This document shows, one piece after another, positions 19,501 to 42,920 of a DNA stretch of 64,000 nucleotides (positions are counted from its first letter, which is position 1; the number at the start of each line of letters is the position of its first letter). Below the pieces are notes generated by a model. It ran no database searches, had not been told where the DNA came from, and saw only the letters and a list, made by a program, of their open reading frames with translations. Origin of the DNA: Trueperaceae bacterium. Its GTDB lineage: Bacteria; Deinococcota; Deinococci; Deinococcales; Trueperaceae. A program made the translations under genes and the position numbers. Where the stretch lies: contig CBDCDZ010000004.1 of the NCBI GenBank assembly GCA_965215565.1, forward strand, positions 352,001-416,000, given 5' to 3'.

Positions 19501-19517
19501 CAGGTCTCTACCCTCTT

Positions 19518-20135
19518 AGAGGGTGTCTGGGAAGGGTCTATCTCTTGGATTTTGCGAGCCTTGTCAACATCGAACGTACCATAGCAGCGTAGATCAAGGC
19601 TTCACTACTTTGGGGCAGGCGCTCGTAGTCTTTGCTGTGGCGTCTATGACGGCTAATCCCAGGTTAGGTACATCGTGCCAGCACTCGAACGGGCAAAGCC
19701 CGCCCCTTCGGGGCTAGTTCTCTGTGATGCTCACCTGTACAAAGGTTCTTTCTACCACCTAGCGTCTAGGCAAGACCTTAAAGGTGCGGTTGCCCTTGAG
19801 CATAGCAAGTTGTTCAGGCGTGAGTTCTTGTCCTTCGGGAAGCCAAAAGCCTCGGATGCCTGCGTAAGCATGTTGCACAATCTCGATGGTCCAGCCTAAG
19901 GAGTCCGTGACCCACTCTTGGAAGGTGCGCTCCCCCGTCAATAAAGAGGTGGCGAAGTCTACCGAAGCGCCCCTGTAGTGCTTCAAGCAGTTGCTCGCCT
20001 CCGGCTGGGTCACTGATGTTGGCGGCAAGCACAAGTACGCCCAGAAGTAGCCCTTGCGTATCAACCAGGATGTGTCGCCGTCGCCCTTTAACTTTCTTGC
20101 CCCCATCGCACCCTTTGACGCCGCCTGCTTCAGTG
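19518..20135 (-). mobile_element. IS5-family transposase remnant (3' half)
   Basis: GKKVKGRRRHILVDTQGLLL, KVLPRR*VVERTF and RRHSKDYE in broken frames. Confidence 0.88.
19661..19736 (-). mobile_element. 39-bp AGGTGA...TAACCT element with a nested 37-bp CTCGAAC...GTTC element (19684-19720)
   Basis: Interrupts the IS5 frame after ERTF; removing the inner element restores a perfect AGCATC-ACA-GATGCT hairpin. Confidence 0.8.
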
Positions 20136-20812
20136 TGCCTTAGCCGCGTCGCCAACTCAGGTCCAGACAAGGACCTGCCGTGACCCGCCGCGAGGGTAAA
20201 GGGCTCGAGTTCAGCGAGGCTCGAGACCGAACGTCGAGCTGCGACCCAGTCAGGCGTAAAGGGCGTAGGCGGGCGGCTCAGCTCGCGCGCGTGTGTAAGC
20301 TGGGATGTCCAAGAATCCAGGTTCATCGTAGCGAGCGCGTCGCCCGCGATGAGGGTCCGGTCCGCCTCGCGCCACAAGGACACATGACCGGGTGTGTGAC
20401 CCGGCGTGTGAACCGCACGCCACCCCGGTAGCCCCGGTACGCTGCCGTTCGTCGGGAGGGGCTGCACCCGAACACCGAAATCGTAACCGCGGTGCGGGAA
20501 GGCTCGAGACATCATCGCGAGTGCGCCGCCCACGGTCGGGTCTTGCGGCGGGTAGTCCGACGCGCCTGTCAAGTAGGACAGCTCGAGCAAATGTGCGTAG
20601 ATAGGAACGTCCCAGGTCCTGGCTAACTCGAGCGCCGTGCCCGCGTGGTCAAAGTGTCCATGGGTGAGCACGATGGCTTCAGGCTTAGCGCTCTGACCGT
20701 AGCGCTCTTCAGCCGCCTTGCGAAGATAGCGCTCTGAGTCGGGCAGCCCCGTATCGACCAAGACCCAGCCCCCCTGCGGCGCACCAACCAGATAAGCGTT
20801 GACAAAGACTAT
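20136..20812 (-). pseudogene. MBL-fold metallohydrolase truncated at both ends
   Basis: LTHGHFDHAG, HTPGHTPGH and IAGDA motifs; 3' end fused to IS5, no proper start. Confidence 0.85.
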
Positions 20813-20819
20813 GGGGGTC

Positions 20820-27462: not shown

Positions 27463-27529
27463 TGTGGGTCAAGCCGGGCGGGGCTTGCGCCGGGTCGCGG
27501 CTGAACGCAAGGCTTGTGACACCAAGTCA

Positions 27530-27631
27530 TACCAGTCTGAAAAAGGGGTGTCGCAACGTGAGGGCGTCCGAAGTCACGCTCATAGAGCGTTTAAGGATGT
27601 CACGTTGCGACACCCTTAAATCACTTTGGTA
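27530..27631. mobile_element. 102-bp MITE (TACCA...TGGTA) with TCA target duplication
   Basis: Internal IR GGGTGTCGCAACGTGA/TCACGTTGCGACACCC; removal restores the IS3 sequence. Confidence 0.85.
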
Positions 27632-27789
27632 TCAGTTTTCATACTATCGGCTATCGCGTAGCCAACGATACGCTTCGAAAAACCGTCCATGACGCCCACC
27701 AGGTAGAGCTCGAATGATCAAAGCCCGGCCCTTCAGACCTAGTTTCCAGCCCTCGGCGGTCGGCAGATACGCAATATCGACTACCGTGC

Positions 27790-28059
27790 TATTCGGCCTG
27801 GGTGAGCGCCGCACCCGGGCTCGTCGAGAGGATACGCACCTCGGGCAGGTACGCGCGGGTGCTGCGCGTAACGTCGTGCGACCCGCCCAACGCGCGGGGC
27901 TGGCTGAACTTAGATATCCTCTTCGAGGTGGTATGGGAGGCGTGCGAGTGCCTATACCTACTCAGCTTCGGTCTGGTTGTCGAGGTGGTGGAACCTTCAG
28001 CCCTGCGCGCGTGGGTTGCAGAGGCGGCTAAGGCGACGGCGGAGCTGTATCGCCGGTGA
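27790..28059 (+). pseudogene. C-terminal fragment of a WYL/YafY-type regulator
   Basis: LLSFG..VEVVEP..LR...AE.A.....LY C-terminal motif only. Confidence 0.65.
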
Positions 28060-28149
28060 GTTCGTCGCTAGCTCATACTCTATAGAGGGGCGCAGTGTAT
28101 GCGTGACAGTTCGGTAAGCACGTTTCGTTAGCGGGTAAGCTTTCGTACG

Positions 28150-28183
28150 CTTCTGCGGCAGACGCGCGCGTTAGCTGCAGAAT
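28150..28183. repeat. 34-bp site S2
   Basis: CTTCTGCGGCAGAC GCGCGC GTTAGCTGCAGAAT. Confidence 0.88.
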
Positions 28184-28227
28184 AAACCTCTATGCTCTTA
28201 GCTTGAGGAACAAAAAGTGAACACATA

Positions 28228-28256
28228 TTGACCTATTATAATGCACGTCCTATACT
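28228..28256 (+). promoter_or_regulatory. Promoter of TA operon 1 (probably leaderless)
   Basis: TTGACC-17-TATACT, ATG 5 nt downstream. Confidence 0.7.
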
Positions 28257-28261
28257 AAGCT

Positions 28262-28633
28262 ATGGCAACAAGCTTGCTCGACCATACGCTTCTCAGCGCA
28301 CACGACCCCGCAACGGGCCGTTATGACGCCAAACTTTTAGCCGACGTTCTCGCTGTCTCTCAGAAAGAGATGGCAAAGGTTGTTAGCTACACACCGCGAG
28401 GACTCGGCAAAAACCCCGCCTCACCCCACCTACAACCGCAACTGGAGCGGCTCGTCAAGCTCGTCACGACGCTACGCGAGCTTCTCGACGGGGATATGAG
28501 TTTAGTGCGCGTCTGGCTCAAAGCGCCTCATCCGGCCCTAGGAAACGCGAAGCCGCTCGATTATCTCATGGAGGGCCACCTCGACCTTGTCGAAGGGCTC
28601 GTCTACGCGATTGAGACCGGGCAACCTGATTAG
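28262..28633 (+). CDS. Xre/MbcA/ParS-type antitoxin
   Basis: WLKAPHPALG..KPLDYL C-terminal motif; overlaps the RES gene. Confidence 0.88.
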   Translation: MATSLLDHTLLSAHDPATGRYDAKLLADVLAVSQKEMAKVVSYTPRGLGKNPASPHLQPQLERLVKLVTTLRELLDGDMSLVRVWLKAPHPALGNAKPLDYLMEGHLDLVEGLVYAIETGQPD

Positions 28634-29205
28634 TGCTCGATACTGAGAAGCTCGCGCTTGCCCTCCGTAATCTCCAGCCGACGCCTTTAACGCAAACTTT
28701 CTTCCGCATTATCCACGCGAAGTACGCCTCCACTGCTCTTTCCGCAGTGGGATCGTATCGTTTCGGCGGACGCTACAACCCAGCAGGCACGTTCGAGGTG
28801 CTCTACCTAGCCGACAATCCGGTTACAGCTCTGGAAGAGGTCGAAGCGCTGCTGCGCACCAACGACGACCTCAAAGGTGTTAAGGGACCACCGAGGATCG
28901 TGTTGTCAGTCGAGTGCGCACTTCAGCGTGTCGTTCAGCTTGGTGAAAGCGCACTGCGTAACCTCGAGCTTTCAGTTGAGGACGTCACCGGGCCGTGGCG
29001 CGAGAGCTTGAGGCGCAACCAAACCCCAATGACCCACCAGATAGGGCAAATCAGCTTCGAGCGGGGCGACGTTGAGGCGCTGCTCGCACCTTCTGCAAAG
29101 AACCCGGCAACCTCAAACCTCATAGTGTTTCCGGATAGATTGATGGAAGGTAGTGCTTTACGAGTCTTTGATGACTCCGGCATGATTGACGCGCGTCTAC
29201 CATAA
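28633..29205 (+). CDS. RES-domain toxin (NAD+ phosphorylase family)
   Basis: GGRYN, LYLA....TALEE and PSA motifs. Confidence 0.9.
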   Translation: MLDTEKLALALRNLQPTPLTQTFFRIIHAKYASTALSAVGSYRFGGRYNPAGTFEVLYLADNPVTALEEVEALLRTNDDLKGVKGPPRIVLSVECALQRVVQLGESALRNLELSVEDVTGPWRESLRRNQTPMTHQIGQISFERGDVEALLAPSAKNPATSNLIVFPDRLMEGSALRVFDDSGMIDARLP

Positions 29206-29234
29206 CCAAACCCATTGATCGAGAACTGACTGCT

Positions 29235-30119
29235 TCACTGCGGAAAATGTCTCCTGTAGAGCATCTGCCTAGATTCCCCGGATAGGTTGACGTAAAGCTG
29301 CGTCGTGGTAGGCGAGGCGTGCCCGAGGATGGACTGCACCGCTGCGATAGGTGCACCTTGATTTAAGAGCAGCGTGGCGAGGGTGTGGCGCAAGACGTGC
29401 GGCGTCACCTTTTCCTCTAAGCCGCACCGCTCGGTGACCTGCTTGAAAATACGCTGCATCTGTGAGGTGCTGAGGCGCTGATGTTGCAGCGTTTCATCCT
29501 CCTGTCGCCTGCGACGTTTTGTCACGAAGAGTGCTAAAGCGCTGTCCGAGCGACTGTCCAGATACCGCCTGAGCCACAGCGCCGCTTTCGCCCCGAAGTA
29601 CACCTCGCGCTCCTTATTCCCTTTGCCAAGAACCACAACACTCCGGCGTGACCAGTCGAGGTCAATGCGGTCAAGTTGATGAATTTTGCTAACCCTGCAG
29701 CCAGTCGCAAAAAAGAACTCAACGAGGGCGTGTTCCAATAAACTCTCGCAGGCGTCACGCAGTAGTTCTACTTCTTCGACAGATAGAGCCTTGGGTATCC
29801 GTGCGGGCAGGCGCGGCTCTCGCAGTTTCAGTGCAGGATTCCGCTCGAGAATCTCCTCCTCATAGAGTCACTTGAAAAACGCTTTGAGCGCTCGTACCTT
29901 GTTTGCCAAACTCGAGGTCTGCAAGTGCGTTAGGCTCGTGAGGTGAGCGCGCAGGTGCTCGAGCTTAATCGTCTGAACGGCAGTATCTACGTCCAAGTCA
30001 AGAACTAAGCCCTGCAAGTGCAACTTATAGGAGTAGAGCGTCTTGTTGCTATAGCCATCTAGCTTCTGGGCTTTCAGGTACGTGCGGATGCAGCTTACTA
30101 GGGTGAAATCCTCTTTCAT
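29235..30119 (-). pseudogene. Second copy of the XerD-like tyrosine recombinase, nonsense mutant
   Basis: Colinear with 37675-38565; TGG>TGA at 29868-29870; RVSE>RVSK. Confidence 0.93.
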
Positions 30120-30183
30120 GAGAAACCTCCAAGCCATAGTCTGTACGGCGATTTACTTTGTATCGTGCTTGAAAGGCAGTAGT

Positions 30184-30217
30184 TTTCTGCGATGACCACG
30201 CGCTGAAAATTTCGCCA
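30184..30217. repeat. Degenerate 34-bp site upstream of the pseudo-recombinase
   Basis: TTTCTGCGATGACC ACGCGC then a decayed arm; 65 bp from the ATG, versus 66 bp for S5. Confidence 0.65.
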
Positions 30218-30314
30218 ACCTAAATGCGAAATACCTAGCCATCCAACCTCGCGTTCCTCACATGCAAGTAACGCCTCTTGCAAAATCAAGTATACTGAGG
30301 TCAAGGAGGCTGTC

Positions 30315-30809
30315 ATGGCTGCAAGTACCCCTCAAGCAACCTTGATTGATACGGATACGTTCTTTCAGACCCTTTCGGCGGATAAACCTAATGTGGTCAA
30401 GCGCAAAACCTTTGAGGCCGTTACGGGGCTCGACTACTACGCGCTTGACACCATCTGGCTCAGACAGGGTGAGATACCCGTGCGTCTCTCAGCTAGAGCG
30501 ATGATGACTAACCTAGGTACGCTCCTGGACCTTCGTAGCAAAGAGGTCGCGTCACTCCTCGGCGTTAGCGAGTCTCGCGTCAGTCGTAACAACCAGGTGA
30601 CGCTCGCCATGCTCGACCGCGCTGAAGGGGTCAGTGATACCTTCTCTAAGGTCGCCGCCGTGCTCGGCTTCGAGCACGCACGTGACTGGTTCAAATCACC
30701 CAATTCGGCTTTGGAGGGCGCAGCGCCTTACACGTTACTGAGCACCCACTATGGGCAAAAGAAGGTCGATAACCTGATCGCCGCACTCCTCAATGGGGCG
30801 GTTATTTGA
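30315..30809 (+). CDS. Xre/MbcA/ParS-type antitoxin
   Basis: WFKSPNSALEG.AP..LL.T..G motif. Confidence 0.88.
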   Translation: MAASTPQATLIDTDTFFQTLSADKPNVVKRKTFEAVTGLDYYALDTIWLRQGEIPVRLSARAMMTNLGTLLDLRSKEVASLLGVSESRVSRNNQVTLAMLDRAEGVSDTFSKVAAVLGFEHARDWFKSPNSALEGAAPYTLLSTHYGQKKVDNLIAALLNGAVI

Positions 30810-31447
30810 TACGAATTTACCGGCTCGCCCACGAGCTGGCGCTCGCCAAAAACCCCCAACCTTTTCAGCCTGCTCCTAGTGAGAACCGCTGGAACTCGGT
30901 CGGCACGCAAGTGGCTTATGGCGGAGAACATATTGCGCTTAGCGCGTTGGAACTCCTGACCTGTTGGGGACACTATCCCAACATGCGTGGTTATCAGCTC
31001 TTTACGCTCGACATTCGCTCTGAAGACGTAGAGGATGTGCTTGATCAGCGTCCTAATATCGACCCAAACGACTACAGTCAAACGCGCCGCTACGGAGATA
31101 GTTGGGTCGAGGAAGGGCGTTCGCTGGCGCTTAAAGTGCCGAGCGTGGTCGTCCCGATGAGCTACAACTACCTCGTCAATCCTGATCACCCTGCTTTCGA
31201 TCCGGAGGCAGTTGCCTTCCGCGGTGCGTTCGAATACGAGGCGAGGATCGCAAAGCTTATCGAGGAAGCGAAAGCAGACCGCCCTTCGAGTCGAAGCTAC
31301 CCTACCTACAGAATCCGTTGTGCGAGAGATGCGCGCGTATGCCGCACAACCTTTGAGGCAGGCAGGGCAAGCTGTGAGCACGTTCTCCTCGGCGCGCCGT
31401 GCAGCTTCGCCGCTTCATACTCTTTTGCGCCTATACTGTCTTCGTGA
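30806..31447 (+). CDS. RES-domain toxin with a read-through C-terminal tail
   Basis: NRWN, ALE, VPSVVVP and NYLVNPDHP motifs; domain ends near 31270 but the ORF crosses site S3. Confidence 0.85.
   Translation: MIRIYRLAHELALAKNPQPFQPAPSENRWNSVGTQVAYGGEHIALSALELLTCWGHYPNMRGYQLFTLDIRSEDVEDVLDQRPNIDPNDYSQTRRYGDSWVEEGRSLALKVPSVVVPMSYNYLVNPDHPAFDPEAVAFRGAFEYEARIAKLIEEAKADRPSSRSYPTYRIRCARDARVCRTTFEAGRASCEHVLLGAPCSFAASYSFAPILSS
31317..31350. repeat. 34-bp site S3
   Basis: GTTGTGCGAGAGAT GCGCGC GTATGCCGCACAAC. Confidence 0.9.
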
Positions 31448-31560
31448 AGCGCTACACCCTCAGATACGCCGCCCTACGTCTCGCCCCCAAGTTGCTGCAC
31501 CCCCACGCTCTGCGTGAACGACATAGTTGTTCAGATCATGGCGCAGGCGAGACATAAAGA

Positions 31561-32169
31561 ATGACGCCCTGGTTTTTGGTAGGGTTTCTCCTCACTGGGC
31601 TCTCCTTCGCACAAACGAGCTGCTTGCCCTCCTGGCAACCGTCCACAGAGACCCAGAGACTCGAGTGGCAGCGCGAGGTAGACGAGTGGGAGAGATACCT
31701 AGCGCTCCTACCTGGCTACCTGAGCCAGCTTCCCGAGGAGCCCGACATGCAGCTCGTCATGCCCGTAGAAGGTATGGGCGTCGCCGAAGTTACCGACACT
31801 TGGGGTGCGCCGCGTGGGGGCGGGCGCGTGCACGCCGGGCAGGACCTCTTCGCGCCGCGCGGCACGCCCGTGTACTCAGCCACCCCTGGCTTTGTCTGGC
31901 GCATCTCGGAGCGCAAACTCGGGGGCAAAACCGTCACCGTAATAGGCGGAGGCGGTCTACGCTACTACTATGCCCACCTAGAGCGCTACGCCGATGGGCT
32001 GCGCGAGGGGCAAGCGGTTACTACTGACACCTTGCTCGGTTACGTCGGCGCGAGCGGCAACGCCAAGAACACACCGCCGCATCTGCACCTGGGCGTCTCG
32101 AGCGGCAATCCTCTAACGTGTGAGCGGGTTGTCTACGACCCTCTACCTAAACTCGTGGACCGGGAGTAG
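31561..32169 (+). CDS. Secreted M23-family peptidase
   Basis: Signal peptide, HAGQD, YYAHL and HLH motifs. Confidence 0.93.
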   Translation: MTPWFLVGFLLTGLSFAQTSCLPSWQPSTETQRLEWQREVDEWERYLALLPGYLSQLPEEPDMQLVMPVEGMGVAEVTDTWGAPRGGGRVHAGQDLFAPRGTPVYSATPGFVWRISERKLGGKTVTVIGGGGLRYYYAHLERYADGLREGQAVTTDTLLGYVGASGNAKNTPPHLHLGVSSGNPLTCERVVYDPLPKLVDRE

Positions 32170-32200
32170 GTCTGGCATTGTTTATTCCTTCGGCCTTAAC

Positions 32201-32234
32201 GTTGTGCGTGTGATGCGCGCATCTCGTGCACAAC
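32201..32234. repeat. 34-bp site S4
   Basis: GTTGTGCGTGTGAT GCGCGC ATCTCGTGCACAAC. Confidence 0.9.
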
Positions 32235-32281
32235 GTCGGTGCGTTCAAGGTATACAGCACCTTCAACGGCGGCTTACAACT

Positions 32282-32545
32282 TTAACGAAGTCTCAAAAGC
32301 TCTCGCACGCGCTGGTGCGGCAGGGCGTGCGCAGTCCGCCCCTCCGCACCCATGGTGGTCTTGGCAGCTACGAGAGCGTTGACGATCGCCTCCTCGACCC
32401 CTTGCACAGTCCCTTCGAACAGCGGCGTCATCAGGCCGCTACTCAGCATCCCGAGCGCCGTTACACCCGAGCGCCTCGCCGCGCCGGAGTTCGCGGTTGA
32501 GAACGCCAAGAAGATATCGCCAGAGGTGTGGGCGCCGTAGCTGCG
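32282..32545 (-). pseudogene. C-terminal fragment of a DmpA/P1 peptidase
   Basis: SGDIFLAFST and VEEAIVNALVAA motifs. Confidence 0.8.
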
Positions 32546-32598
32546 GAAGAGTTGCGAGCGCCTGACGCACAAGGTTAGCTTTGAGAACCTCAGAAGGT

Positions 32599-33297
32599 CT
32601 AGCGCCGCCCTGTCGGGTCCATCGGTGGCTCTTCAGAAAGAGGGCGCATAATATCCGCAAGGTCGTCACGGTCTTTGTAGACGGTGCCGTGTAGCGGACA
32701 AACCGTGCGGAGCGGCTTGTCGAAAACACGCCACTGCTCCGCTAAGCGTTCAGTCATCGCTTCAGTCGGTCCCGGTGAACGCTCCAAGCGCAGCGGCTCC
32801 TGGTCTTGGCGCGGCCCTGGTCCCACCGCGCAGTCGCCTGCTAAGAGAACGCCGCCGTGCGCAGACCAGTAGAGTATCACGGAGCCCGCAGTGTGTCCGG
32901 GAAAGTGGATAGGCTCGAGCCCCGCCTCTTCAAGCACCTCATCCGTCACGGGGTCATCGAACTCAACGCCCGCCTGTTTTGCCTCTGGGTGAGATGCGTC
33001 GGCTGGGTGGAGCAGGATGAGTACGCCGTAGGTCTCTCGCAGCGCCCCGTACGCGTCACCTTGCCCAGCGACGTTGCGGTGCGAGAGGACGAGAACTTTA
33101 GGTGGGTAGCCCTCCTCCGCCAGCTTGTGTATGCCGCCGAGCGTCCAGTTGTAAGGTGCATCGAAGAGAACGGAGTAACCCTCAAAGAGCACGGCGAACG
33201 AATTCGGCGGGCGTCCGCTGCCGGTTGTCGCGCCCGCTTGAGGTAGGAGTACGAGGTCGTCGTAGAGATACTGGGCTTTAGGGGAGAAGAAATCCAT
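32599..33297 (-). CDS. MBL-fold hydrolase-like protein
   Basis: LSHR, PGHTAGS, LAGD and PLHG motifs. Confidence 0.75.
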   Translation of the reverse strand: MDFFSPKAQYLYDDLVLLPQAGATTGSGRPPNSFAVLFEGYSVLFDAPYNWTLGGIHKLAEEGYPPKVLVLSHRNVAGQGDAYGALRETYGVLILLHPADASHPEAKQAGVEFDDPVTDEVLEEAGLEPIHFPGHTAGSVILYWSAHGGVLLAGDCAVGPGPRQDQEPLRLERSPGPTEAMTERLAEQWRVFDKPLRTVCPLHGTVYKDRDDLADIMRPLSEEPPMDPTGRR

Positions 33298-33322
33298 GCA
33301 GGTCCTCCGAATTCGAGCTTAG

Positions 33323-33560
33323 CTAAGTGGTACCAAGAATATCACGCAAGCTCTTGCCCGCCTTCTCGCCAGCTTCCTCGGCACTTAACTCGTCAAAGGC
33401 GTCGGTGAAGACCTCCACCCCGACCGAATTGAGCCCGCCCGTTTGTGACAGGATGCGCACCACGGTTTTAAGGTCGAAGTCGCCCTCGCCCGGCGCTTTG
33501 CGGAAGTGCAAGAGGTCGTAGGGGTGCGTTAGACTTCCTATCCCTGCGTGATCAAGGCGA
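33323..33560 (-). pseudogene. C-terminal fragment of a sugar-phosphate isomerase/epimerase (TIM barrel)
   Basis: R..PGEGDFDL and GVEVF motifs. Confidence 0.65.
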
Positions 33561-33803
33561 CAATGCAACCCGGCTCAACCGGTCGCCGTGGGCGTGGCTA
33601 GCCCACCCGGTAGCTCTCTCAACATAGGCTTTACTTCCCCCCGTGATAATACGAAAGCAAACTAGGCCGAACCGAAGACAGTTTTTCTGCTTCTGCCGCT
33701 GATTGTCGGAGTACTGCACGAATATTAATTTTCTTACAGTTCGCTTACTCTCCCGTAAATATGGCAGGCTTAGAACGCCGCGATCGTTGAGATTTGGAAA
33801 ATC

Positions 33804-33837
33804 GCTGTGCCGCTGTTTTGCGTGCCGGTCGCGTAAA
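33804..33837. repeat. Candidate degenerate 34-bp site upstream of the nuclease gene
   Basis: GCTGTGCCGCTGTT TTGCGT GCCGGTCGCGTAAA; arms fit, core diverged. Confidence 0.4.
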
Positions 33838-34017
33838 ATCTCGAGTTCGAATTTGAGTTTCAGCGTGGTGACCTTTTTAAGGTCACCCGACTCGGGAAGA
33901 AGTGCTAGGCGAAGATCCGCGTCGTTTCCATGACGGTCTACTGAAAGTGTACGATTAGAGTTGTAGCCGTATCCACAGTGACAGCGTGGGGGACTCTACA
34001 AGGTGGAGGTTTCAAAG

Positions 34018-37000
34018 GTGAAACGTGTACAAATTGTGCTGGCTGCCCTCTTCATAGGGCTGCTGGCAGCTTGTGAGAGGGACGTAGCTTCGGAGGTGCC
34101 ACTCTCGGACCTCGCGGCGAGCGACCTCTTCTTCTCCGAATATGTCGAGGGCAGCAGCTCCAACAAAGCGCTGGAGGTCTATAACGGCACCGGCGTGCCG
34201 GTCGACCTCTCGAGCTACTCGGTCGAGATTTACTTCAACGGCAACAGCTCTGCCGGTACGACTATCGACCTGATCGGCGTGGTCGCCGATGGCGACGTAT
34301 TCGTGCTCGCCGACGACGGCGCTGACCCGGCGATCCTGGCTGAAACTGATCAGACCAGTACAAGCAACTTCTTCAACGGCGACGACGCTATCGTGCTCCG
34401 CAACGACGGCGAGGTCGTCGACGCCTTCGGCCGAGTCGGTACCGACCCCGGTTTGCAGTTCGGCAGCGGCGATACCGGCTCTCAGAACAACACGCTGCGC
34501 CGCGCTGCGGACACCATGTCGGGTGACACCGACCCGAACGACGCCTTCGACCCGGCTACCGAGTACGAGGGTTTCGGACAAGACAACTTCGGTGACTTGG
34601 GCATGTTTGATGGTAGCGACCCAGCCCCGTCGATCGTCATCAACGAGGTGGACGCCGACACGCCGGGCTCCGACAGCGCCGAGTTCGTCGAGCTGTACGA
34701 TGGCGGCGCAGGCAGCACCCCGCTTGACGGGCTCGTGGTGGTGTTCTTCAACGGTTCGGACGACGCGTCCTACGAGGCGTTCGACCTAGACGGCCAGACC
34801 ACGGATGAGAACGGTTTCTTCGTCCTCGGTAACCCGGACGTAGCCAACGTCGACCTGGTTTTTGACCCCGGCAACTCTGGGGCGTTGCAAAATGGGGCGG
34901 ACGCGGGGGCGCTCTACCAAGGCGACGCGTCTGACTTCCCCAACGACACGCCGGTCACGACTGACAACCTCGTGGACGCCATCGTGTACGACACCGACGA
35001 CGGCGGCGACAGCGGTTTGCTGGACGGTCTCGGCGAAACCACTCAGTTCAACGAAGATGCGAATAATGACAAGGACAACGAGTCCAACGCTCGCGTGCCA
35101 GACGGGATGGGCGAGTTCACCGCCCAGGCACCGACGCCGGGCGCATCTAATGCTGGCGACGGCGGTAACGGAGGCGGCGACGGCGGTGGTGAGATCGGCC
35201 AGTGCGGTACCGACGCGACACTCATCAGCGCGGTGCAGGGCAGCGGCGCGACCAGCCCGTTGGTCGGCCAGACTGTCGTTATCGAAGGCGTCGTGGTCGG
35301 CGACTTTCAAGCAAGTGACGATGGCATGTTCGGCGACCTGGACGGTTTCCACGTGCAGGAAGAAGTTACCGATTACGACGCGGATGAAGAAACGTCCGAG
35401 GGCGTCTTCGTCTTCACGGGCAGCAGCGACGTGCCGGACGTGCAGGTGGGCCAGACGGTGCGCGTGCGCGGGACAGTCGGCGAATTCGAGAGTTCCGGCT
35501 CCTCGCAGACGCAGATCACCGACCCTACTGTGGTCATCTGCAGTGAGGGTGTCTTGCCCCCGGTGACCGACATTACCTTGCCCGTTCCCCCACGCAACTT
35601 CCTAGAGCGTTACGAAGGCATGTACGTACGCTTCCCGCAGAGCCTCGCCATCAGCGAGTACTTCAACTTCGACCGCTTCGGCGAGATCGTCCTGGCGCGG
35701 CCCCTGCCGGGCGAGGACCGCCCCTACCAGCCGACGGCGGTGAACGAGCCCGGCTCGGAAGCGGCGGCCGAGCGAGACGAAGACAACCGCCTCGCCCGCA
35801 TCACGCTGGACGACGGGCGCAGCAATCAGAACCCCGACCCGGCGCGTCACCCTAACGGCGAGGTGTTCGACCTGGACAACCGCTTCCGCGGCGGTGACCT
35901 CGTACAGAACGCGCTGGGCGTCCTGGATAACACCTTCGGTATCTACCGCGTCCAGCCGACCCAGGGCGCGAACTACACTCGCGTCAACCCGCGCCCGGAG
36001 GAGCCCGAGGCGGTCGGCGGCTCCCTCAAAGTCGCGAGCTTCAACGTGCTCAACTACTTTAACGGCGACGGTCAGGGTGGCGGCTTCCCCACCTCACGCG
36101 GCGCGGACGACCCCGAGGAGTTCCAGCGCCAAGAGGCTAAGATCGTCGCGTCCATCGTCGGTACCGGGGCGGACGTCGTTGGCTTGATCGAAATCGAGAA
36201 CGACCCGGCGGGCGAGACCAGCGCCCTCGACGACCTGACCGAGGCGCTCAACGCGGAGGCGGGCGCGGGCACCTACGACTACATCCGTACTGGTGATATC
36301 GGCACGGACGAGATCAAAGTGGCCTTCATCTACAAGCCGGGTACGGTCACTCCGATCGGCGACCCTGCGGTGCTCACCGAGTTTGAAGGCCGCGACTTCG
36401 TCGACCCGCGCGACATCGGACCCAAGAACCGCCCGGCCTTGGCCCAGACCTTCCGCGAGGAGGCGACCGGCGGCGTACTCACGGTGGTCGTCAACCACTT
36501 TAAGTCGAAGGGCTCGAGCTGCGGTCCGGGCGACGACGACCCGGATCAGGGCAACTGTAACGGCACACGCGCCGACGCTGCCGACATCCTGGTGGACTGG
36601 CTCGCCAGCGACCCCACCGGCAGCGGCGATCCTGACGTACTCGTCATTGGCGACCTCAATGCCTACGACAAGGAAGACCCCATCGACCAGGTTAAGGAAG
36701 GTGCGGACGACGCGGACGGCACCGAGGACGATTACGCCGACCTCAACCTCGCGTTCGAGGGTGAACTGGCCTACTCCTATGTCTTTAGCGGTCAGTTCGG
36801 CTACCTCGACTATGCGTTAGCGAACCAGGCGCTCTTGGACCAGGTCACGGGCCTCACCGAGTGGCACATCAACGCCGACGAGCCGGATATCCTGGACTAT
36901 GACACTACATTCAAAAAAGACCCGCAGGACGCGCTCTTTGAACCCAACCCCTACCGCTCCTCCGATCACGATCCGGTCATCGTAGGGCTCGACCTGACCC

Positions 37001-37422
37001 CGAGCGACGCTGAGGCACCCGTCATCACCCTGAAGCGCTCAGGTCAGACCCTCTTCCCGCCCAACCATAAGTACCGGACGCTCGACCTCGCGCAGATCAT
37101 CGCCTCGGTGAGTGACAACGTGTCCGACCTCTCTGTGTCCGACGTGGTCATCACTCGCGTCACCAGCGACGAGCCGGAGAACGGCACCGGAGACGGCAAT
37201 ACAGATGACGACATCGTCCTCGAGGGCTGCCAGGTGGTGGAGCTCCGGGCCGAGCGGAGCGGGCCTGGGGACGGCCGCGTCTACACGGTCGAGATTGCGG
37301 TGCAAGACCGGGCGGGCAACGTCGGCACGGCCAGCTACCGGGTCGAGGTGCCTAAAGGACGTAAGGACGCGGCTATTGACAGCGGCACGGCCTATAGCGT
37401 CACCGGGTGCGAGCTTCCATAG
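34018..37422 (+). CDS. ExeM/NucH-family extracellular nuclease lipoprotein (two lamin-tail domains, OB fold, EEP domain)
   Basis: LAAC lipobox; FSEYVEGSS.NKALE; SFNVLNYFN, NHFKSKG, GDLNAY and SSDHDPV motifs. Confidence 0.95.
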   Translation: MKRVQIVLAALFIGLLAACERDVASEVPLSDLAASDLFFSEYVEGSSSNKALEVYNGTGVPVDLSSYSVEIYFNGNSSAGTTIDLIGVVADGDVFVLADDGADPAILAETDQTSTSNFFNGDDAIVLRNDGEVVDAFGRVGTDPGLQFGSGDTGSQNNTLRRAADTMSGDTDPNDAFDPATEYEGFGQDNFGDLGMFDGSDPAPSIVINEVDADTPGSDSAEFVELYDGGAGSTPLDGLVVVFFNGSDDASYEAFDLDGQTTDENGFFVLGNPDVANVDLVFDPGNSGALQNGADAGALYQGDASDFPNDTPVTTDNLVDAIVYDTDDGGDSGLLDGLGETTQFNEDANNDKDNESNARVPDGMGEFTAQAPTPGASNAGDGGNGGGDGGGEIGQCGTDATLISAVQGSGATSPLVGQTVVIEGVVVGDFQASDDGMFGDLDGFHVQEEVTDYDADEETSEGVFVFTGSSDVPDVQVGQTVRVRGTVGEFESSGSSQTQITDPTVVICSEGVLPPVTDITLPVPPRNFLERYEGMYVRFPQSLAISEYFNFDRFGEIVLARPLPGEDRPYQPTAVNEPGSEAAAERDEDNRLARITLDDGRSNQNPDPARHPNGEVFDLDNRFRGGDLVQNALGVLDNTFGIYRVQPTQGANYTRVNPRPEEPEAVGGSLKVASFNVLNYFNGDGQGGGFPTSRGADDPEEFQRQEAKIVASIVGTGADVVGLIEIENDPAGETSALDDLTEALNAEAGAGTYDYIRTGDIGTDEIKVAFIYKPGTVTPIGDPAVLTEFEGRDFVDPRDIGPKNRPALAQTFREEATGGVLTVVVNHFKSKGSSCGPGDDDPDQGNCNGTRADAADILVDWLASDPTGSGDPDVLVIGDLNAYDKEDPIDQVKEGADDADGTEDDYADLNLAFEGELAYSYVFSGQFGYLDYALANQALLDQVTGLTEWHINADEPDILDYDTTFKKDPQDALFEPNPYRSSDHDPVIVGLDLTPSDAEAPVITLKRSGQTLFPPNHKYRTLDLAQIIASVSDNVSDLSVSDVVITRVTSDEPENGTGDGNTDDDIVLEGCQVVELRAERSGPGDGRVYTVEIAVQDRAGNVGTASYRVEVPKGRKDAAIDSGTAYSVTGCELP

Positions 37423-37487
37423 GCTCTCGGGATATAGATGGAAAGGTAAGCTGAAGGCTGCTGAGCTTCAACCTAGATGCTGAACTT

Positions 37488-37519
37488 CAACCTCCCCGTC
37501 TTACCGGGGAGGTTGCTTT
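37488..37519 (+). terminator. Terminator-like hairpin after the nuclease gene
   Basis: CAACCTCCCCG...CGGGGAGGTTG stem. Confidence 0.65.
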
Positions 37520-37575
37520 GACGCTCGGTAGACCCACTGATGATAAGGCTAGTTAGCCTCGGCAGACCTAACTTC

Positions 37576-37609
37576 GCTGTGCGGCGAACGCGCGCAACAG
37601 CCGTAGAAG
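37576..37609. repeat. 34-bp site S5, 66 bp upstream of the intact recombinase
   Basis: GCTGTGCGGCGAAC GCGCGC AACAGCCGTAGAAG. Confidence 0.88.
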
Positions 37610-37674
37610 CCCATTACTTCCCCAAGAACGATTCAACTTAAACCTCCGTGCAGACTACAGATCGGAGGTTTTTC

Positions 37675-38565
37675 ATGGACAAACAAGAAGCATCCACTTT
37701 GGCAAGCTGCGTTCAGACGTACTTAAAAGCCCGAAAGTTGGACGGCTACAGCGATAAAACGCTCTACTCCTATAGACTGCATCTGAATCATTTAGCCGCA
37801 GATTTAGGTGATGCTACTCCTATTAGCATGGTTAAGCTCGAGCACCTCCGCACCCACCTCACCAGCCTGACGCACCTGCAAACCTCGAGCCTAGCGAACA
37901 AGGTTCGCGCCCTTAAAGCGTTTTTCAAGTGGCTTTACGAGGAAGAGGTGTTGGAGCGTAACCCCGCGTTGAAGCTGAGGGAGCCGCGCTTGCCAGCTAG
38001 AATACCCAAAGCGCTCTCAGTTGAAGAAGTGGAGCTGCTGCGTGACGCCTGCGAGAGTTTATTGGAGCACGCCCTAGTTGAGTTCTTTTTTGCGACTGGC
38101 TGCAGGGTTAGCGAAATTCATCAACTGGACCGTATCGACCTCGACTGGCTGCGCCGGAGCGTCGTGGTCCTCGGCAAGGGCAACAAGGAGCGTGAGGTGT
38201 ACTTCGGGGCGAAGGCGGCGCTGTGGCTCAAGCGCTACTTGGACAACCGCTCAGACAACACTTTAGCACTGTTCGTCACGAAGCGACGGAGACGTCAGCA
38301 TAGCGGGACTTTAGAACATCAGCGCCTGAGCACCTCGCAAATGCAGCGCATCTTTAAGCGGGTCGCTAAGCGGTGCGAGTTGGAGGAGAAAGTGACGCCG
38401 CACGTGTTGCGCCATACACTCGCCACGCTGCTTCTCAATCAAGGTGCGCCCATCGCTGCCGTGCAATCCATTCTCGGGCACGCCTCACCCACGACTACGC
38501 AGCTCTACGTCAACCTATCCGGGGAATCAAGGCAGATGCTCTATAGGAGGCACTTCCCGCAATGA
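37675..38565 (+). CDS. XerD-like tyrosine recombinase, 296 aa, intact
   Basis: RBS GGAGG; N-terminal SAM-like domain; TGCRVSE, GKGNKER, HVLRH, LGH and TTQLY catalytic set complete. Confidence 0.95.
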   Translation: MDKQEASTLASCVQTYLKARKLDGYSDKTLYSYRLHLNHLAADLGDATPISMVKLEHLRTHLTSLTHLQTSSLANKVRALKAFFKWLYEEEVLERNPALKLREPRLPARIPKALSVEEVELLRDACESLLEHALVEFFFATGCRVSEIHQLDRIDLDWLRRSVVVLGKGNKEREVYFGAKAALWLKRYLDNRSDNTLALFVTKRRRRQHSGTLEHQRLSTSQMQRIFKRVAKRCELEEKVTPHVLRHTLATLLLNQGAPIAAVQSILGHASPTTTQLYVNLSGESRQMLYRRHFPQ

Positions 38566-38626
38566 ACCGCCGCACCTCAGCAAGCACGGGTTTTTGCGCT
38601 ACAATGTTATGTAACTAGGAGTATTC

Positions 38627-38896
38627 ATGGACGCAGCCGCGCTACCCCACCTACCTAAGCTTACAGAGTTGCCGATAAGTCTGCCCACTGACGGTGCGAT
38701 CAATATCGAGATTGTTCAAGGTGTACCTACCTTTCGAGCTTCAACTGCCGTGGTGGGTAGGATCGAGCAGCTCCTCAAGAAAGAGCAAGAAAAGGGGTTG
38801 AGCGTCTCTGAAGCGGATGAACTGGCTCAGTATGAAGAGGTCGATGACTACCTCAGCCATCTGAACCGCGTCGTTTGTAATTTGCAGAGCGCTTAG
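38627..38896 (+). CDS. Small hypothetical protein, partner of the HNH gene (antitoxin-like)
   Basis: Own TACAAT and AGGAG; RIEQLL.K.....LS..E..EL..Y pattern. Confidence 0.7.
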   Translation: MDAAALPHLPKLTELPISLPTDGAINIEIVQGVPTFRASTAVVGRIEQLLKKEQEKGLSVSEADELAQYEEVDDYLSHLNRVVCNLQSA

Positions 38897-38903
38897 CGCG
38901 GGA

Positions 38904-39469
38904 GTGGCGCGACCTAAAGTACCCATCGCTCTAAGAACCGAAGTCAGAGAGCGCGCAAAGTCATTATGCGAGTACTGCCACACCGACGAGACGTGGCAGT
39001 ACGTTCCTTTTACTATCGACCACGTTGTTCCGGTCAGTCTAGGTGGTTCTATAGCAGGAGAGAACCTTGCACTTGCCTGTTTCCACTGCAATCGGTACAA
39101 GGGCGATGCGACTCAGGCTACTGACTCTTCTACGGGTCAAACCGCGCAACTATAGCAGGTATCATCTGGTTTGAGCCAATCTCACACGATAGAACAACGG
39201 CTAGCACGCACATTGTCGGATGATATCTGCGCTATTTCAGTCCAATACTTTTGATAACCGCTATATTTAACCCGAGAACGCAGCGCTGGGCAGAGCACTT
39301 CATCTGGTCGAGCGACAAGCTACGAATCGTTGCGTTGACAGCTACAGGTAGAGCGACATTGCGTGCCTTGAATCTCAACCGTGAGCGGGTACTGCGCATA
39401 CGCGAAGCGGATGTCGCTGTTGGACAGCATCCACCTCATGACGACCCGGTACAGAGTAAAGAGGTTTAG
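38904..39469 (+). pseudogene. HNH endonuclease interrupted by a MITE
   Basis: CEYC, IDHVVP, NL..AC..CN; continues LFNPRTQRWAEHF after removing 39153-39265. Confidence 0.92.
39153..39263. mobile_element. 111-bp MITE with TA duplication
   Basis: TIR TAGCAGGTATCA / TGATAACCGCTA (10/12); removal restores CAA CTA TTT AAC CCG. Confidence 0.9.
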
Positions 39470-39471
39470 GT

Positions 39472-39505
39472 GCTATGCGCGTGATGTGCGCGTTAAGCGC
39501 AGAAG
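39472..39505. repeat. 34-bp site S6
   Basis: GCTATGCGCGTGAT GTGCGC GTTAAGCGCAGAAG, 2 bp after the HNH stop. Confidence 0.85.
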
Positions 39506-39532
39506 CCGTTGGTCAGCTTTCGCTGATAGGTT

Positions 39533-39970
39533 CTAGGCTCCGTCTTTACTCTCCAGCCCCTTATAACATTTTGTTAGCAGCGCACACGCTTGCTCGATCT
39601 CCACTTGTGTCAGCTCCCGCGTCATCCGCTTTTCAACCTCAGCTACCAAACTGTGAGCATGTTCCAAGAGCGCTTGCCCCTCAGCAGTCGGTTTCACCCG
39701 CTGAATACGTCCATGCTCGGGGTGCGGCGAGCGCTCTAGCAGCGCGCCACGCTCAAGCCCGATCACGATCTGGTACATAGTCTGAGGTGTTACGAAACAG
39801 CGGCGAGCAAGTTCGGCATTTGAGAGCCCCTGCTCCTTCACCAGCTCGCCCAACGCGGCGTACTGCGGGGTCGTAAGGTCTAGTGTCGCGAGCGCTGCAT
39901 CCATGTTGCTGCGCAGCGCCGACTGAGCGCGCTTGAGGAGATAGCCGAGAGGATCAGAGGTCAGGTTCAT
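39533..39970 (-). CDS. MarR-family regulator
   Basis: LTTPQY..L, SNAELAR..VTPQ and T.EG motifs. Confidence 0.93.
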   Translation of the reverse strand: MNLTSDPLGYLLKRAQSALRSNMDAALATLDLTTPQYAALGELVKEQGLSNAELARRCFVTPQTMYQIVIGLERGALLERSPHPEHGRIQRVKPTAEGQALLEHAHSLVAEVEKRMTRELTQVEIEQACALLTKCYKGLESKDGA

Positions 39971-39982
39971 GGCTTGGCATTA

Positions 39983-40028
39983 TATCAGGGTACTGATAAT
40001 CTAGCTACAAGTTATCAGGGTACTGATA
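39983..40028. promoter_or_regulatory. Two identical palindromic operators, probably for the MarR
   Basis: TATCAGGGTACTGATA at 39983-39998 and 40013-40028 between divergent genes. Confidence 0.85.
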
Positions 40029-40043
40029 AATAGGAGGTCAAGA

Positions 40044-40418
40044 ATGAATGTAAAAACGAAGGTTGACGGTCCCGACTTCATTGCGCTACAATGGCGCGAT
40101 TTGGACCCTGGCAAACGTTTCTACCACGAGACGCTAGGGCTAGCACTCGCCCCGCAGAGCCCGCCTGGTGCAGTTGTTTTCGCTACCGAGCATATCACCT
40201 TTGCCGTGCGGACGCCGCTCGTCAATCTAGACCTCACCCCACATCGGGGTTATGGCGTGGCACTCTGGTTCAAGGTAGACGACAGCGCGAAGCTACGTGA
40301 CCATCTGGTTGACAAGGGGGTTGAGGTCACGTCGGACCTAGTAGACGGTCCCTTTGGCAAGACCTTTTCCATCCGGGACCCTGAGGGTTACCTCATCACC
40401 CTTCACGACTGTGGCTGA
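40044..40418 (+). CDS. VOC/glyoxalase family protein
   Basis: FY..TLGL and GPFGKTFSIRDPEGY motifs. Confidence 0.92.
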   Translation: MNVKTKVDGPDFIALQWRDLDPGKRFYHETLGLALAPQSPPGAVVFATEHITFAVRTPLVNLDLTPHRGYGVALWFKVDDSAKLRDHLVDKGVEVTSDLVDGPFGKTFSIRDPEGYLITLHDCG

Positions 40419-40863
40419 GGCGCATTACTGGGTCAACACAGTGTCGCGCGATCACGTATGGGCAGGGGTCGAGGGCGGCTTCACCCAAGCGGATCACGGC
40501 AAGCGCACACGCCTCGAGCGTCTAAGAAGAGGGAACATGCTGATTTTCTACTCTCCTAGAACTGCTTTTAGGGGTGGGGAGGTGCTGCAGGCGTTTACCG
40601 CCTTGGGCGAAATCATAGACAACGAGCCCTATCAAGTCGAGATGACGTCCGACTTTCATCCCTGGCGACGTAAGGTGAGCTTCGAAGGGGTGAAAGAAGC
40701 ACCGGTACGTCCTTTACTAGAAGACCTTACCTTCGTTACTGATAAACGGAAGTGGGGCTTCCCCTTTCGGCGCGGGCTCTTCGAGATCAGCCCGCAGGAC
40801 TTCGAGCGGATCGCTAAGGCGATGGGCGCACAGGTCGAGATGCCAGCACAGCTATTCGGTTGA
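40411..40863 (+). CDS. EVE-domain protein
   Basis: YWVNTVSRDHV..GV.GGF.QA.HGK and FRRGLFEI...DF motifs. Confidence 0.88.
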   Translation: MAEAHYWVNTVSRDHVWAGVEGGFTQADHGKRTRLERLRRGNMLIFYSPRTAFRGGEVLQAFTALGEIIDNEPYQVEMTSDFHPWRRKVSFEGVKEAPVRPLLEDLTFVTDKRKWGFPFRRGLFEISPQDFERIAKAMGAQVEMPAQLFG

Positions 40864-40872
40864 ACTATGGTG

Positions 40873-40906
40873 CTTCTGCGACTAACACGCGCGGTTGACG
40901 CATTGC
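40873..40906. repeat. 34-bp site S7
   Basis: CTTCTGCGACTAAC ACGCGC GGTTGACGCATTGC, 9 bp after the EVE stop. Confidence 0.85.
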
Positions 40907-41204
40907 GCCGTCCCCCGCCAGTTGCACAAAACGCCATCCGCAATAGCTGTCACTTTTTCAGTGTTCGAGGGGCGCAAAGGCGCAGATGAACGCATACTCT
41001 TTTCACTGCACAGCCGAATCAGGCGCTTAGGTTGGCGCGTTTAGCGCCTTTCAGTTCCCCGCCTTCGCTGCGGCGATTTCGACGATGGTGCCGCAGAAAC
41101 ACTACGCTCGCGCCAACGCCATGCGCTCGCTCGCAGGTTCCGCTTCAGGTATCGCCGCCCCTATTCTAGCGGGTGTACTGCTGAGCTTCACGAACCTAAC
41201 GCTT

Positions 41205-41422
41205 ATTGCGTGGTCGAAGTGACCATGCGTGAGGATAATCGCTTCTGGTTTCTTCTCTCCGTAGCGCACTTCAGTCGCCTCGTGGAGATAGCGGCTCGAG
41301 TTAGGCGGCCCCGTGTCGACCAGTACCCAATCCCCTTGCGGCGTATCAATCAGGTAAGCATTGACGAAGACGGTAGGCACGCGCACGACGCCCGGTACGA
41401 CCATTTCTGTTTTGACGTTCAT
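41205..41422 (-). pseudogene. N-terminal fragment of an MBL-fold hydrolase (paralog of 20136-20812)
   Basis: FVNAYL..WVLVDTG...LTHGHFDHA, then homology stops. Confidence 0.85.
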
Positions 41423-41588
41423 AGTTGTTCCTCCTCGAGCTTAGGGTAGCACCTGAACGGGGGCTCTGGACCTGACGTCCCGGAATAGCCTTGAAGACCG
41501 ACCTAGTCAGAGCAAAAGCTTAGCTTGGTATAGACCGCTCATTTTGCGCCGCTCTTAGTCAAGAGCAGGGGTGGAATCGGGCGGTGGC

Positions 41589-41622
41589 GCTGTGCAGCAG
41601 ACGCGCGCGTCTCTTGCAGAGG
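41589..41622. repeat. 34-bp site S8
   Basis: GCTGTGCAGCAGAC GCGCGC GTCTCTTGCAGAGG. Confidence 0.88.
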
Positions 41623-41873
41623 CAAGAGCTAGCTCTTGCCCTCGGCCTTCGGTATCTTCAGCAACTTCCGATCGCTCTTTTACTTATCTAAACCACCGCT
41701 CTAAGAGCGGCGGTTTCACATGAAGAGAGTGCGGCTAAAGAAGAGACCAGCAGTGTTAAGTACTTCGACTTCAATAATCTAAACTATCTCGAGGAAGTTT
41801 TTGCGCTCAGAACGAACTTCGTTGACATTCTCTAGTTTAGGTTATTTCGACACACCTACTTAGAACAACAGTA

Positions 41874-42920
41874 CTAGGATAGTAACGTGAGCGCCACGTG
41901 CGCCCGCGTGGACAGCCCAAGCTTTTTTAAGGTGTGTTCGGTGTGGCGTCTTGCAGTATTGAAGCTCACACCTAAGTTCTCAGCTATCTGCTTGTCGGTA
42001 AGCCCTTTTGCCAGCAACAGCGCGACCTCAACTTGCCGGGGCGTGAGGGCGTAGCGCGTTTTTAGAGTGCCGGGGTCAGGTAGAGTACCTAGTTGACGCG
42101 ACACGCTGAGCAAGTAGCGAGGCTCTGCGGCTCCACCTTGCAAGGCGATCCTCAGTTCGTAAATGGCTAACCCTGTCGAGACGCGGCGGCGCGGCGTAAG
42201 CGGTTCCTCGCTCAGCGTTTTCACCGAACGCGCCGCCGCAGCCATGACCCGGCCAAAGCCTGTGTCGCTTTCGGCGAGCTGTGCGAATACCTCGTTTCGC
42301 CGCAGCTCTTTACCTTGCGTGTTCAATAGGGCGAGCGGTAAGGGAGCGGCGAGCGGGTCGGGTCCCGCACGCCAAGCGGCGTGCAGGTGCGCCCCTGCCC
42401 CAAACGCCGCCAGCACAAGGTCGATAAGTTGGTACCCCTGCTCGCCGTAAAGCCGAGCTGAGTCTTTTTCAAAGGCGCACAAGATGGATAGCTCCCCGGT
42501 GGGCGTAGCAACCGAGGGTCCTAGCAAGTAATTAAGTCCTGCGGGCACGAATACGTCTTGATAGGTGGGGGAGCGCTCGAGCTTCTCCCTGGCAAACGTG
42601 TCTATGAACACGGTAGGACCTCGCTCCAAGCGTGCCTGTACGAACGCTTGCAAGTGCGGGTCAGAATTGACACTGGGCTCACGTAGCTGCTTATAGCGCC
42701 CTCCTAAAGTGAGTAGCATCTCCTTATCGGTATCGTCGCTACTCAGCGCCGCGTCACCATTGACCTCAAAAAACACGGTGTGGTCCGCGCCCAGCAGGTC
42801 GCGCAGGGCGCGGTTACATGCTAAGTGGTACGACTCAGAATTTGCGAACTCCGGGCGCGACAAGAACACACGCTGCGCCCGGACGACCCGCTCGAGGTCG
42901 GCGCTACTCAGGTAAGGCAT
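41874..42920 (-). CDS. LuxR C-terminal HTH regulator with an N-terminal GAF-like region
   Basis: LTPRQVEV..LLAKG...KQIAENLGVS.NTARRH motif. Confidence 0.9.
   Translation of the reverse strand: MPYLSSADLERVVRAQRVFLSRPEFANSESYHLACNRALRDLLGADHTVFFEVNGDAALSSDDTDKEMLLTLGGRYKQLREPSVNSDPHLQAFVQARLERGPTVFIDTFAREKLERSPTYQDVFVPAGLNYLLGPSVATPTGELSILCAFEKDSARLYGEQGYQLIDLVLAAFGAGAHLHAAWRAGPDPLAAPLPLALLNTQGKELRRNEVFAQLAESDTGFGRVMAAAARSVKTLSEEPLTPRRRVSTGLAIYELRIALQGGAAEPRYLLSVSRQLGTLPDPGTLKTRYALTPRQVEVALLLAKGLTDKQIAENLGVSFNTARRHTEHTLKKLGLSTRAHVALTLLS

Follow-up and report, generated by a model that had tools for sequence, protein, structure and literature searches.

The two recombinase copies

The window considered here is a stretch of 64,000 nucleotides from a Trueperaceae genome of 4.49 Mb (G000, contig C4, positions 352001-416000), and it carries two copies of a gene for a XerC/D-like tyrosine recombinase, in opposite orientation, each accompanied by genes of toxin-antitoxin (TA) or nuclease type and each set among short dyad repeats. 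The intact copy (37675-38565, + strand) encodes 296 aa, and no other member of its family is intact in this genome. It matched PF00589 with an E value of 1.3e-38 and the N-terminal PF02899 above the cut-off, and the catalytic set R-K-H-R-H/W-Y of tyrosine recombinases is complete (R144, K168, H243, R246, H269 and Y278). The other copy (29235-30119, - strand) is a pseudogene of 294 codons in which a TGA at 29868-29870 stands at the position of a Trp in homologues and Lys replaces Glu in the RxSE motif.

A first-pass annotation of the window had described two opposed copies, a premature stop in one of them, near-identical C-termini, diverged N-termini and many synonymous changes, all of which was borne out. 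The copies are 87% identical in amino acids and 79% in nucleotides. Amino acid identity is 67.5% in codons 1-40 and reaches 100% in the stretch that starts at codon 241, and the longest run of DNA that they share is 36 bp. Synonymous divergence (dS) between them is 1.27 and nonsynonymous divergence (dN) 0.08; the low dN/dS of about 0.06 implies that selection acted on the pseudogene during the greater part of its history. As a yardstick, rpoB gave a dS of 0.55-0.60 to two genomes of the same genus and of 1.17-1.35 to three genomes of other genera. In a protein tree of 64 rows, built by a quick method with a midpoint root, the intact copy grouped with copies from two relatives (L008 in G001 and L013 in G002, support 85-89) and the pseudogene was not its sister; a DNA tree of 12 recombinase genes was poorly resolved. 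A fresh duplication, which the annotation had also doubted, is ruled out by a dS at the level of rpoB between genera together with the non-sister placement. On sequence evidence both copies are old lineages, which may have arrived separately or have diverged in place.

The objection that the second copy is an assembly artefact fails given the 79% identity, and stretches of the region agree letter for letter with contigs from run X2, although this run may be the source sample and its matches are not independent. Gene conversion as the cause of the alike C-termini found no support when the copies were aligned, as synonymous divergence is high throughout except at codons 121-160 (proportion of synonymous differences 0.29), which may be an old conversion tract or chance.

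A predicted hairpin (AAACCTCCG...CGGAGGTTT, 37640-37671, + strand) would cover the ribosome-binding site of the intact gene. It is kept in 11 of 12 Trueperaceae homologues and broken in the pseudogene; 96% of the cells in its alignment are paired, and covariation was not above that of shuffles. A promoter scan gave no promoter-like match around the intact gene and an Rfam scan of window positions 27500-42000 gave no match. Two remnants of the same family were also seen. One is an internally collapsed relic (C4:166066-166320; L092 10067-10320) in which the N-terminal portion is preserved along with the FFFATG motif and the final codons; it sits behind a MITE (a miniature transposable element with inverted repeats), and its upstream gene is that of the L009 copy in G001. 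The other is a short internal fragment at window positions 7953-8078, next to a variant of the MITE.

Modules around the two copies

The dyads of the window have a 26-bp form, a 10-bp arm (TGCR-N3-RWH) being followed by the spacer GCGCGC and a mirrored 10-bp arm. A repeat scan placed ten of them, starting at 21399, 28154, 31321, 32205, 37580, 39476, 41593, 54112, 54872 and 55856. The module of the intact copy opens with the full dyad S5 (37580-37605), 95 bp upstream of the recombinase start. Behind the recombinase come a gene for an 89-aa protein of no known family (38627-38896, + strand), a putative antitoxin-like partner of the next gene, and an HNH endonuclease gene (PF01844; 38904-39469, + strand) split by a MITE of 113 bp (39151-39263) with a TA target duplication; G071 holds an intact homologue of 150 aa. 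The module ends at S6 (39476-39501), whose spacer is GTGCGC, and the next runs to S7 at 40877. The 89-aa protein has 34 homologues including itself, corresponds to unnamed Atlas clusters and had no match in Pfam, NCBIfam or PADLOC.

The module of the pseudogene is bounded on its outer side by the full dyad S2 (28154-28179, spacer GCGCGC). Between S2 and the pseudogene, and convergent with the latter, lie genes for an Xre/MbcA/ParS antitoxin (28262-28633, + strand; PF09722, E 3.5e-10) and a RES toxin (28633-29205, + strand; PF08808, E 4.8e-18). Upstream of the pseudogene there is only a half-site (30184-30203, - strand), consisting of a spacer GCGCGT and the inner arm, and the alignment to L008 stops there, 3.5 bp from the centre of the full site of L008. 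A second Xre/RES pair follows (30315-31447, + strand; Xre at 30315-30809, RES open reading frame at 30806-31447), which occurs in G001 without a recombinase. In both pairs the Xre/ParS antitoxin gene stands upstream of the RES toxin gene and the products pass the Pfam cut-offs, while matches to NCBIfam NF049844 and NF049845 stayed below theirs (NF049845 in the case of the first antitoxin). One sigma-70-like match precedes an Xre gene, as for modules that carry their own promoters. The full dyads S3 (31321-31346) and S4 (32205-32230) come next, with an M23 peptidase gene (31561-32169) between them.

The modules had originally been drawn as S5-S6 and as S2 to 30184. S2, S5 and S6 are indeed full sites; the outer arm is missing at 30184, so that the full-site unit of the pseudogene is S2-S3 (28154-31346) and includes the second Xre/RES pair. 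The accompanying claim of a toxin-type pair with each copy stands in that an Xre/RES pair and a small protein/HNH pair are present, and has to be qualified in that the HNH gene is split and its pair matched no TA family in Pfam, NCBIfam or PADLOC.

A contig from another study (X1) joins 39150 directly to 39264 and so has no MITE; its first 1260 bases did not align to the recombinase even at 80% identity. No clean excision or inversion joint at S5 or S6 was present among the contig matches listed. The MITE belongs to a TA-targeting family with the ends TATAGCAGGTAT...TGATAACCGCTA, 55 of whose 217 genome blast matches are at least 100 bp long (near full length), and copies sit in module genes and beside recombinase relics. 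Elsewhere in the window (19501-20815) a piece of a metallo-beta-lactamase-fold gene and a transposase piece are fused at 20135 into one reading frame of 315 aa, both pieces being near-identical to other places in the genome.

The sites as points of exchange

A matrix seeded with the ten window sites found 40 clustered matches in G000, 35 on contig C4 and five on contig C2, against none in a 2-Mb Markov control. Both arms fit a single symmetric consensus, the IUPAC pattern matches either strand at every site, and site length varies from 26 to 34 bp across the dyads. Most of the clusters have no recombinase nearby.

Comparison with relatives provided 12 distinct locus matches (at least 83% identity and 600 bp). 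With ends at locus edges excluded, 10 of the 21 internal match ends fell within 17 bp of a site centre, positions that make up 0.7% of the total. The module to the right of the intact recombinase module (39488-40892) is 97% identical to one in an unrelated place of G001 with other neighbours, and there the homology opens inside the spacer of S6 and closes inside the next site. At the level of sequence, then, the sites are shown to mark points where passenger modules were swapped between genomes.

Some further modules deserve mention. The five sites of C2 lie at C2:15237-46026. This contig of 50 kb also has a paralogue of the window's 1139-aa LTD gene, and it is possibly a plasmid vehicle for modules. 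A gene for a GGDEF-terpene synthase fusion lies inside a site-bounded module of G002 (L198:7544-9598) and the matching stretch of G000 stops at a site, for which reasons the fusion gene likely moves as a cassette. A site-to-site interval of G001 holds a group II intron-type reverse transcriptase/maturase (L193:5200-6939).

Homologues in the Trueperaceae

The survey of the Trueperaceae clade covered 14 copies: the two in the window, L008-L014, L098, L099, L101, L182 and L183. A more distant locus (L184, 47-50% identity) was scanned, gave no site and was left out of the 14. A full site was found 91-110 bp upstream of the recombinase in ten copies, the exceptions being the window pseudogene, L014, L101 and L183. 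A site lay at most 1.2 kb downstream in 12 copies (that of L009 has a damaged arm), and L098 and L099 had none that could be detected. Eight copies have full sites on both sides. The idea that homologues are never followed by a second site thus fails. In some genomes the spacer is GAGCGC or CGGCCC, and the flanks beyond the sites are not common to L008-L014.

TA-like or nuclease cargo was found in 13 of the 14 copies, in seven arrangements. Convergent Xre/RES genes accompany the window pseudogene, L010, L099 and L101, and co-oriented ones L009 and L013. L011 and L012 carry a convergent YhcG/DUF1016 gene (PADLOC PDC-S02), and a small gene with a PIN gene was found in L008 and L098 and, read by eye, in L182. 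The pairing of a small gene with HNH is co-oriented in the window and convergent in L014; the truncated locus L183 has no cargo. One design recurs across genera: the pseudogene module of the window aligns over 1922 bp to L010 of another genus (G005), the homology ending at S2 within 5 bp of its centre, and it also matches L099 and L101. Cargo also occurs by itself: in G071 decayed half-sites enclose nothing but the small/HNH pair, and in G001 related pairs are the sole content between full sites.

Relatives in the Bacillota

In the protein tree the Trueperaceae recombinase clade nests among sequences of the Bacillota, and no donor is claimed, because the tree was rooted by midpoint only. Thirteen loci of a Bacillaceae clade (41-49% identity) hold related dyads with the consensus TTCAACTAAC-N6-GTTAGTTGAA. 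At a lower threshold 91 matches were found in 67 loci against 1.3 in controls, with a matrix that was trained on the same loci it scored. In eight of the 13 loci a site lies 26-132 bp behind the recombinase gene, and in L037, L055 and L056 full sites are close on both sides. Loci of the Alicyclobacillus/Sulfobacillus type gave 50 matches against 0.7 in the control, with a site 27-150 bp downstream in seven of 18. A Paenibacillus-rich sister clade gave no matches with the Bacillaceae matrix.

The most direct evidence for the recombinase gene as a cassette comes from L032/L033, L038 and L052. These loci, of different genera by record label, have in common only a recombinase unit of ~990 bp at 89-95% identity; the alignments stop at the flanking sites on both sides, and there is no TA pair inside. 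Related dyads form dense arrays, with as many as 15 within 21 kb, in L027-L056 and L075 (Bacillaceae) and in L015-L025 (Alicyclobacillus and Sulfobacillus types). Their spacers are polar and of several types (GGGTGC, GGGCAG, GGGGGC and GGGCGC), and they would constitute a cassette system in culturable Bacillota. A search of plasmids returned ten records at about 40% identity to the recombinase, mostly from Bacillus.

Which enzyme acts on the sites

Of 128 family genomes, nine have the strict site pattern, eight the recombinase family and six both. Sites without the enzyme were seen in G071, G034 and G097; in G151 the enzyme goes with sites centred on CGGCCC, and G092 has a distant broken copy. 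This co-occurrence is an association and not proof, because the genomes are kin, and those with sites may form one clade. Three lineages from two phyla show related dyads alongside this recombinase clade; its sister clade does not.

Other tyrosine recombinases of G000 were judged unlikely to be the catalyst. A 229-aa recombinase is present in two of the 128 genomes and adjoins a transposase gene that we take to be of Tn3 type, and two further ones look phage-type, one of them with a stop. The 229-aa gene is itself part of a unit at C4:435780-439680 (L208 5778-9679), in which by eye the transposase and a divergent tyrosine resolvase lie amid Rhs-like and SMI1/KNR4-like genes. The presence of a 343-aa Xer-like gene, found in 97 of the 128 genomes, does not track the sites.

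A recombinase gene as a probable cassette

The window probably holds two old 'autonomous' modules, each made up of a site, the recombinase gene, TA-like cargo and a site, of a platform-free cassette system in which the recombinase likely moves itself and other modules. By established tyrosine-recombinase chemistry, recombination would be double-stranded and run across 6-bp spacers that have to match. A study of dif sites describes a requirement for spacer matching there as well (PMC13141974). By the same chemistry four monomers would sit on the arms of a pair of double-stranded sites and swap strands over the matching spacer. GCGCGC is its own reverse complement and so gives a site no polarity, which would explain why the two copies are oppositely oriented; any two sites could recombine either way, and the expected outcomes are inversion, release of a circle with one site, and its re-entry at any of ~40 sites in either direction. 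A recombinase between two sites would be expected to excise its own gene. Fusion with a neighbouring TA or defence module would come about by loss of the site between them, a site that Bacillota copies still have behind the gene, and the fusions kept repeatedly in the Trueperaceae may penalise loss or add a benefit. The hairpin would hold expression of the enzyme low. At present one copy has lost its enzyme and half a site and kept Xre/RES, and the other keeps its enzyme with a broken HNH gene.

The claim of the first-pass annotation that the catalyst travels as one of the modules can be kept in part. Sites on both sides of most homologues, variable neighbours and the exchange of the gene alone in the Bacillaceae speak for it; a cassette is well supported for the recombinase family and likely for the window copies. 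A number of observations weigh against parts of this account and are given below with the part that each concerns.

Addiction is a plausible role for the cargo, and the tie of TA-like genes to recombinase modules that had been proposed is upheld by counts. Across 84 intervals between sites, none longer than 6.5 kb, with one overlap dropped, TA-like or nuclease cargo was present in 7/7 intervals with a recombinase and in 10/76 without (Fisher p 5e-6, which is overstated as kin are counted); on a stricter count of only Xre/RES, PIN and Fic the figures are 5/7 and 8/76. The cargo search was a tblastn of all 84 intervals with 18 TA-type queries, supplemented by Pfam on the unlabelled intervals of relatives (113 of 143 reading frames, E 1e-9) and on those of G000 (E 1e-2 to 1e-4), so that a few background TA genes may have been missed. 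The HNH gene behind the intact recombinase is broken. The Bacillota copies are mostly without TA genes in the module, from which it follows that addiction is not required. The recombinase could also be a cassette whose TA-like genes serve in defence or stress, or represent small modules of a common kind that fused by chance. The YhcG cargo is a PADLOC candidate defence gene (PDC-S02), the small/HNH pair has no TA family match and is found alone between sites or decayed half-sites, the module of the intact copy persists although its HNH gene is broken, and TA-module fusion through site loss is on record for dif modules (PMC13141974). Against this, all seven cargo arrangements are TA-like or nuclease compared with a background of about 13%, which disfavours chance though not a defence role, and an Xre/RES pair is described as having stabilised a plasmid in Klebsiella (PMC10896132). 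A cargo of this other kind is on balance somewhat unlikely.

It is less likely still that the enzyme works the sites from modules that are long-resident and in effect fixed, integron-like anchors, with the upstream site as primary entry, neighbours that turn over and the copies as old paralogues. The spacing of the upstream site is conserved, every pair of Trueperaceae recombinase copies differs by a dS of at least 0.87, and recombinase modules are at most 82% identical across Trueperaceae genomes compared with 95-98% for passenger modules. No empty site was found in relatives among the 40 candidates scored per genome. The relic at C4:166066-166320 shares its upstream gene with the L009 copy of G001, which implies that a copy has kept its place since the genus split. 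A fixed anchor is nevertheless hard to reconcile with a second site behind the gene in 12 of the 14 copies, with flanks that L008-L014 do not have in common, with one module design that recurs across genera with its junction at a site, with Bacillaceae that swap the recombinase gene alone, and with the many site clusters of G000 that have no recombinase nearby.

That a host-encoded recombinase works the sites, as for Acinetobacter dif modules, and that the window gene is a mere passenger is very improbable: G071 (seven sites) and G034 (three sites) do have sites and the widespread 343-aa Xer-like gene without this family, and dif modules can carry an unrelated serine recombinase (PMC9455709), but the 343-aa family occurs in 97 genomes and sites in only nine, the dyads accompany this recombinase clade and not its sister in two phyla, and purifying selection on the gene was strong.

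Beyond the window, the cassette account may tentatively be extended, with rather more doubt than confidence, to a platform-free system that spans the Deinococcota and the Bacillota. Its dedicated recombinase would be a cassette that seeds, leaves and re-enters arrays, and enzyme-free clusters of sites would be revived on its arrival. In the Trueperaceae a palindromic spacer would have made the sites interchangeable and non-polar and so would repeatedly have selected fusions with addiction genes.

Comparison with known systems

Searches of full-text literature, which miss most subscription papers, found no description of this recombinase family. The nearest solved structures are XerD (1a0p, E 2.8e-33) and XerA (4a8e and 5hxy), and an arm-6 bp-arm site is likewise shared with the Xer systems. 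The intact recombinase nonetheless scored below the cut-offs of XerC (206 against 335), XerD (199 against 330) and XerA (193 against 220), and its family is patchy (8/128 genomes), often broken and faced with dozens of sites in place of one.

Minimal integrative elements also build up as tandem series at att sites, as is the case for integrative and conjugative, integrative and mobilizable, and cis-mobilizable elements of streptococci. They resemble the present modules in being site-integrase-cargo-site units with autonomous and non-autonomous members and in forming tandem arrays with internal att sites. The Trueperaceae units differ in being 0.7-6 kb long, in lacking transfer genes as well as a conserved target, whether tRNA or other gene, in their XerC/D-like two-domain enzyme and in a symmetric site without attL/attR polarity.

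The attC sites of integrons are long imperfect palindromes recombined as folded single strands, whereas the Trueperaceae sites are 10-6-10 dyads of 26-34 bp. With integrons and clusters of attC sites lacking integrases the system has in common a tyrosine recombinase, cassette arrays of accessory genes including TA genes, and enzyme-free clusters of sites, as described for them in a genome survey (PMC4889954). It differs in having no IntI, the intact recombinase reaching 108.6 bits with TIGR02249 (two partial stretches) against a cut-off of 265 and 63 with NF011946 against 435. There is no fixed attI/Pc platform, the recombinase gene being bounded by sites as described above, and Trueperaceae modules lie in either direction, with promoters of their own.

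The system also resembles the dif (pdif) modules of Acinetobacter plasmids. In accounts of these, modules are shuffled, inverted and lost where the spacers of two sites match, TA modules are numerous, some modules have fused through loss of a site, and insertion sequences and MITEs have inserted (PMC13141974, PMC9455709). In both cases modules are bounded by two-armed sites with a 6-bp spacer and are exchanged at the sites. The window arms differ in following one symmetric consensus, not distinct XerC and XerD arms that force C/D alternation; in the Trueperaceae the spacer is palindromic, most arrays lie on the chromosome and the modules themselves contain a dedicated recombinase family. The system works like dif modules but belongs neither to them nor to the integrons.

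The genome survey cited above reports no complete integrons in the Bacillota (PMC4889954). Because the same recombinase clade occurs in dyad arrays of that phylum, the system may be a counterpart of integrons there, in the Bacillaceae and Alicyclobacillaceae, and because hosts of the Bacillus type can be cultured it is open to direct tests. One small recombinase together with a non-polar site of 26 bp would also be a possible genetic tool. In integrons the enzyme resides on a fixed platform, and dif modules rely on that of the host; a third arrangement, in which the enzyme is itself a cassette, would explain both the origin and the revival of enzyme-free arrays.

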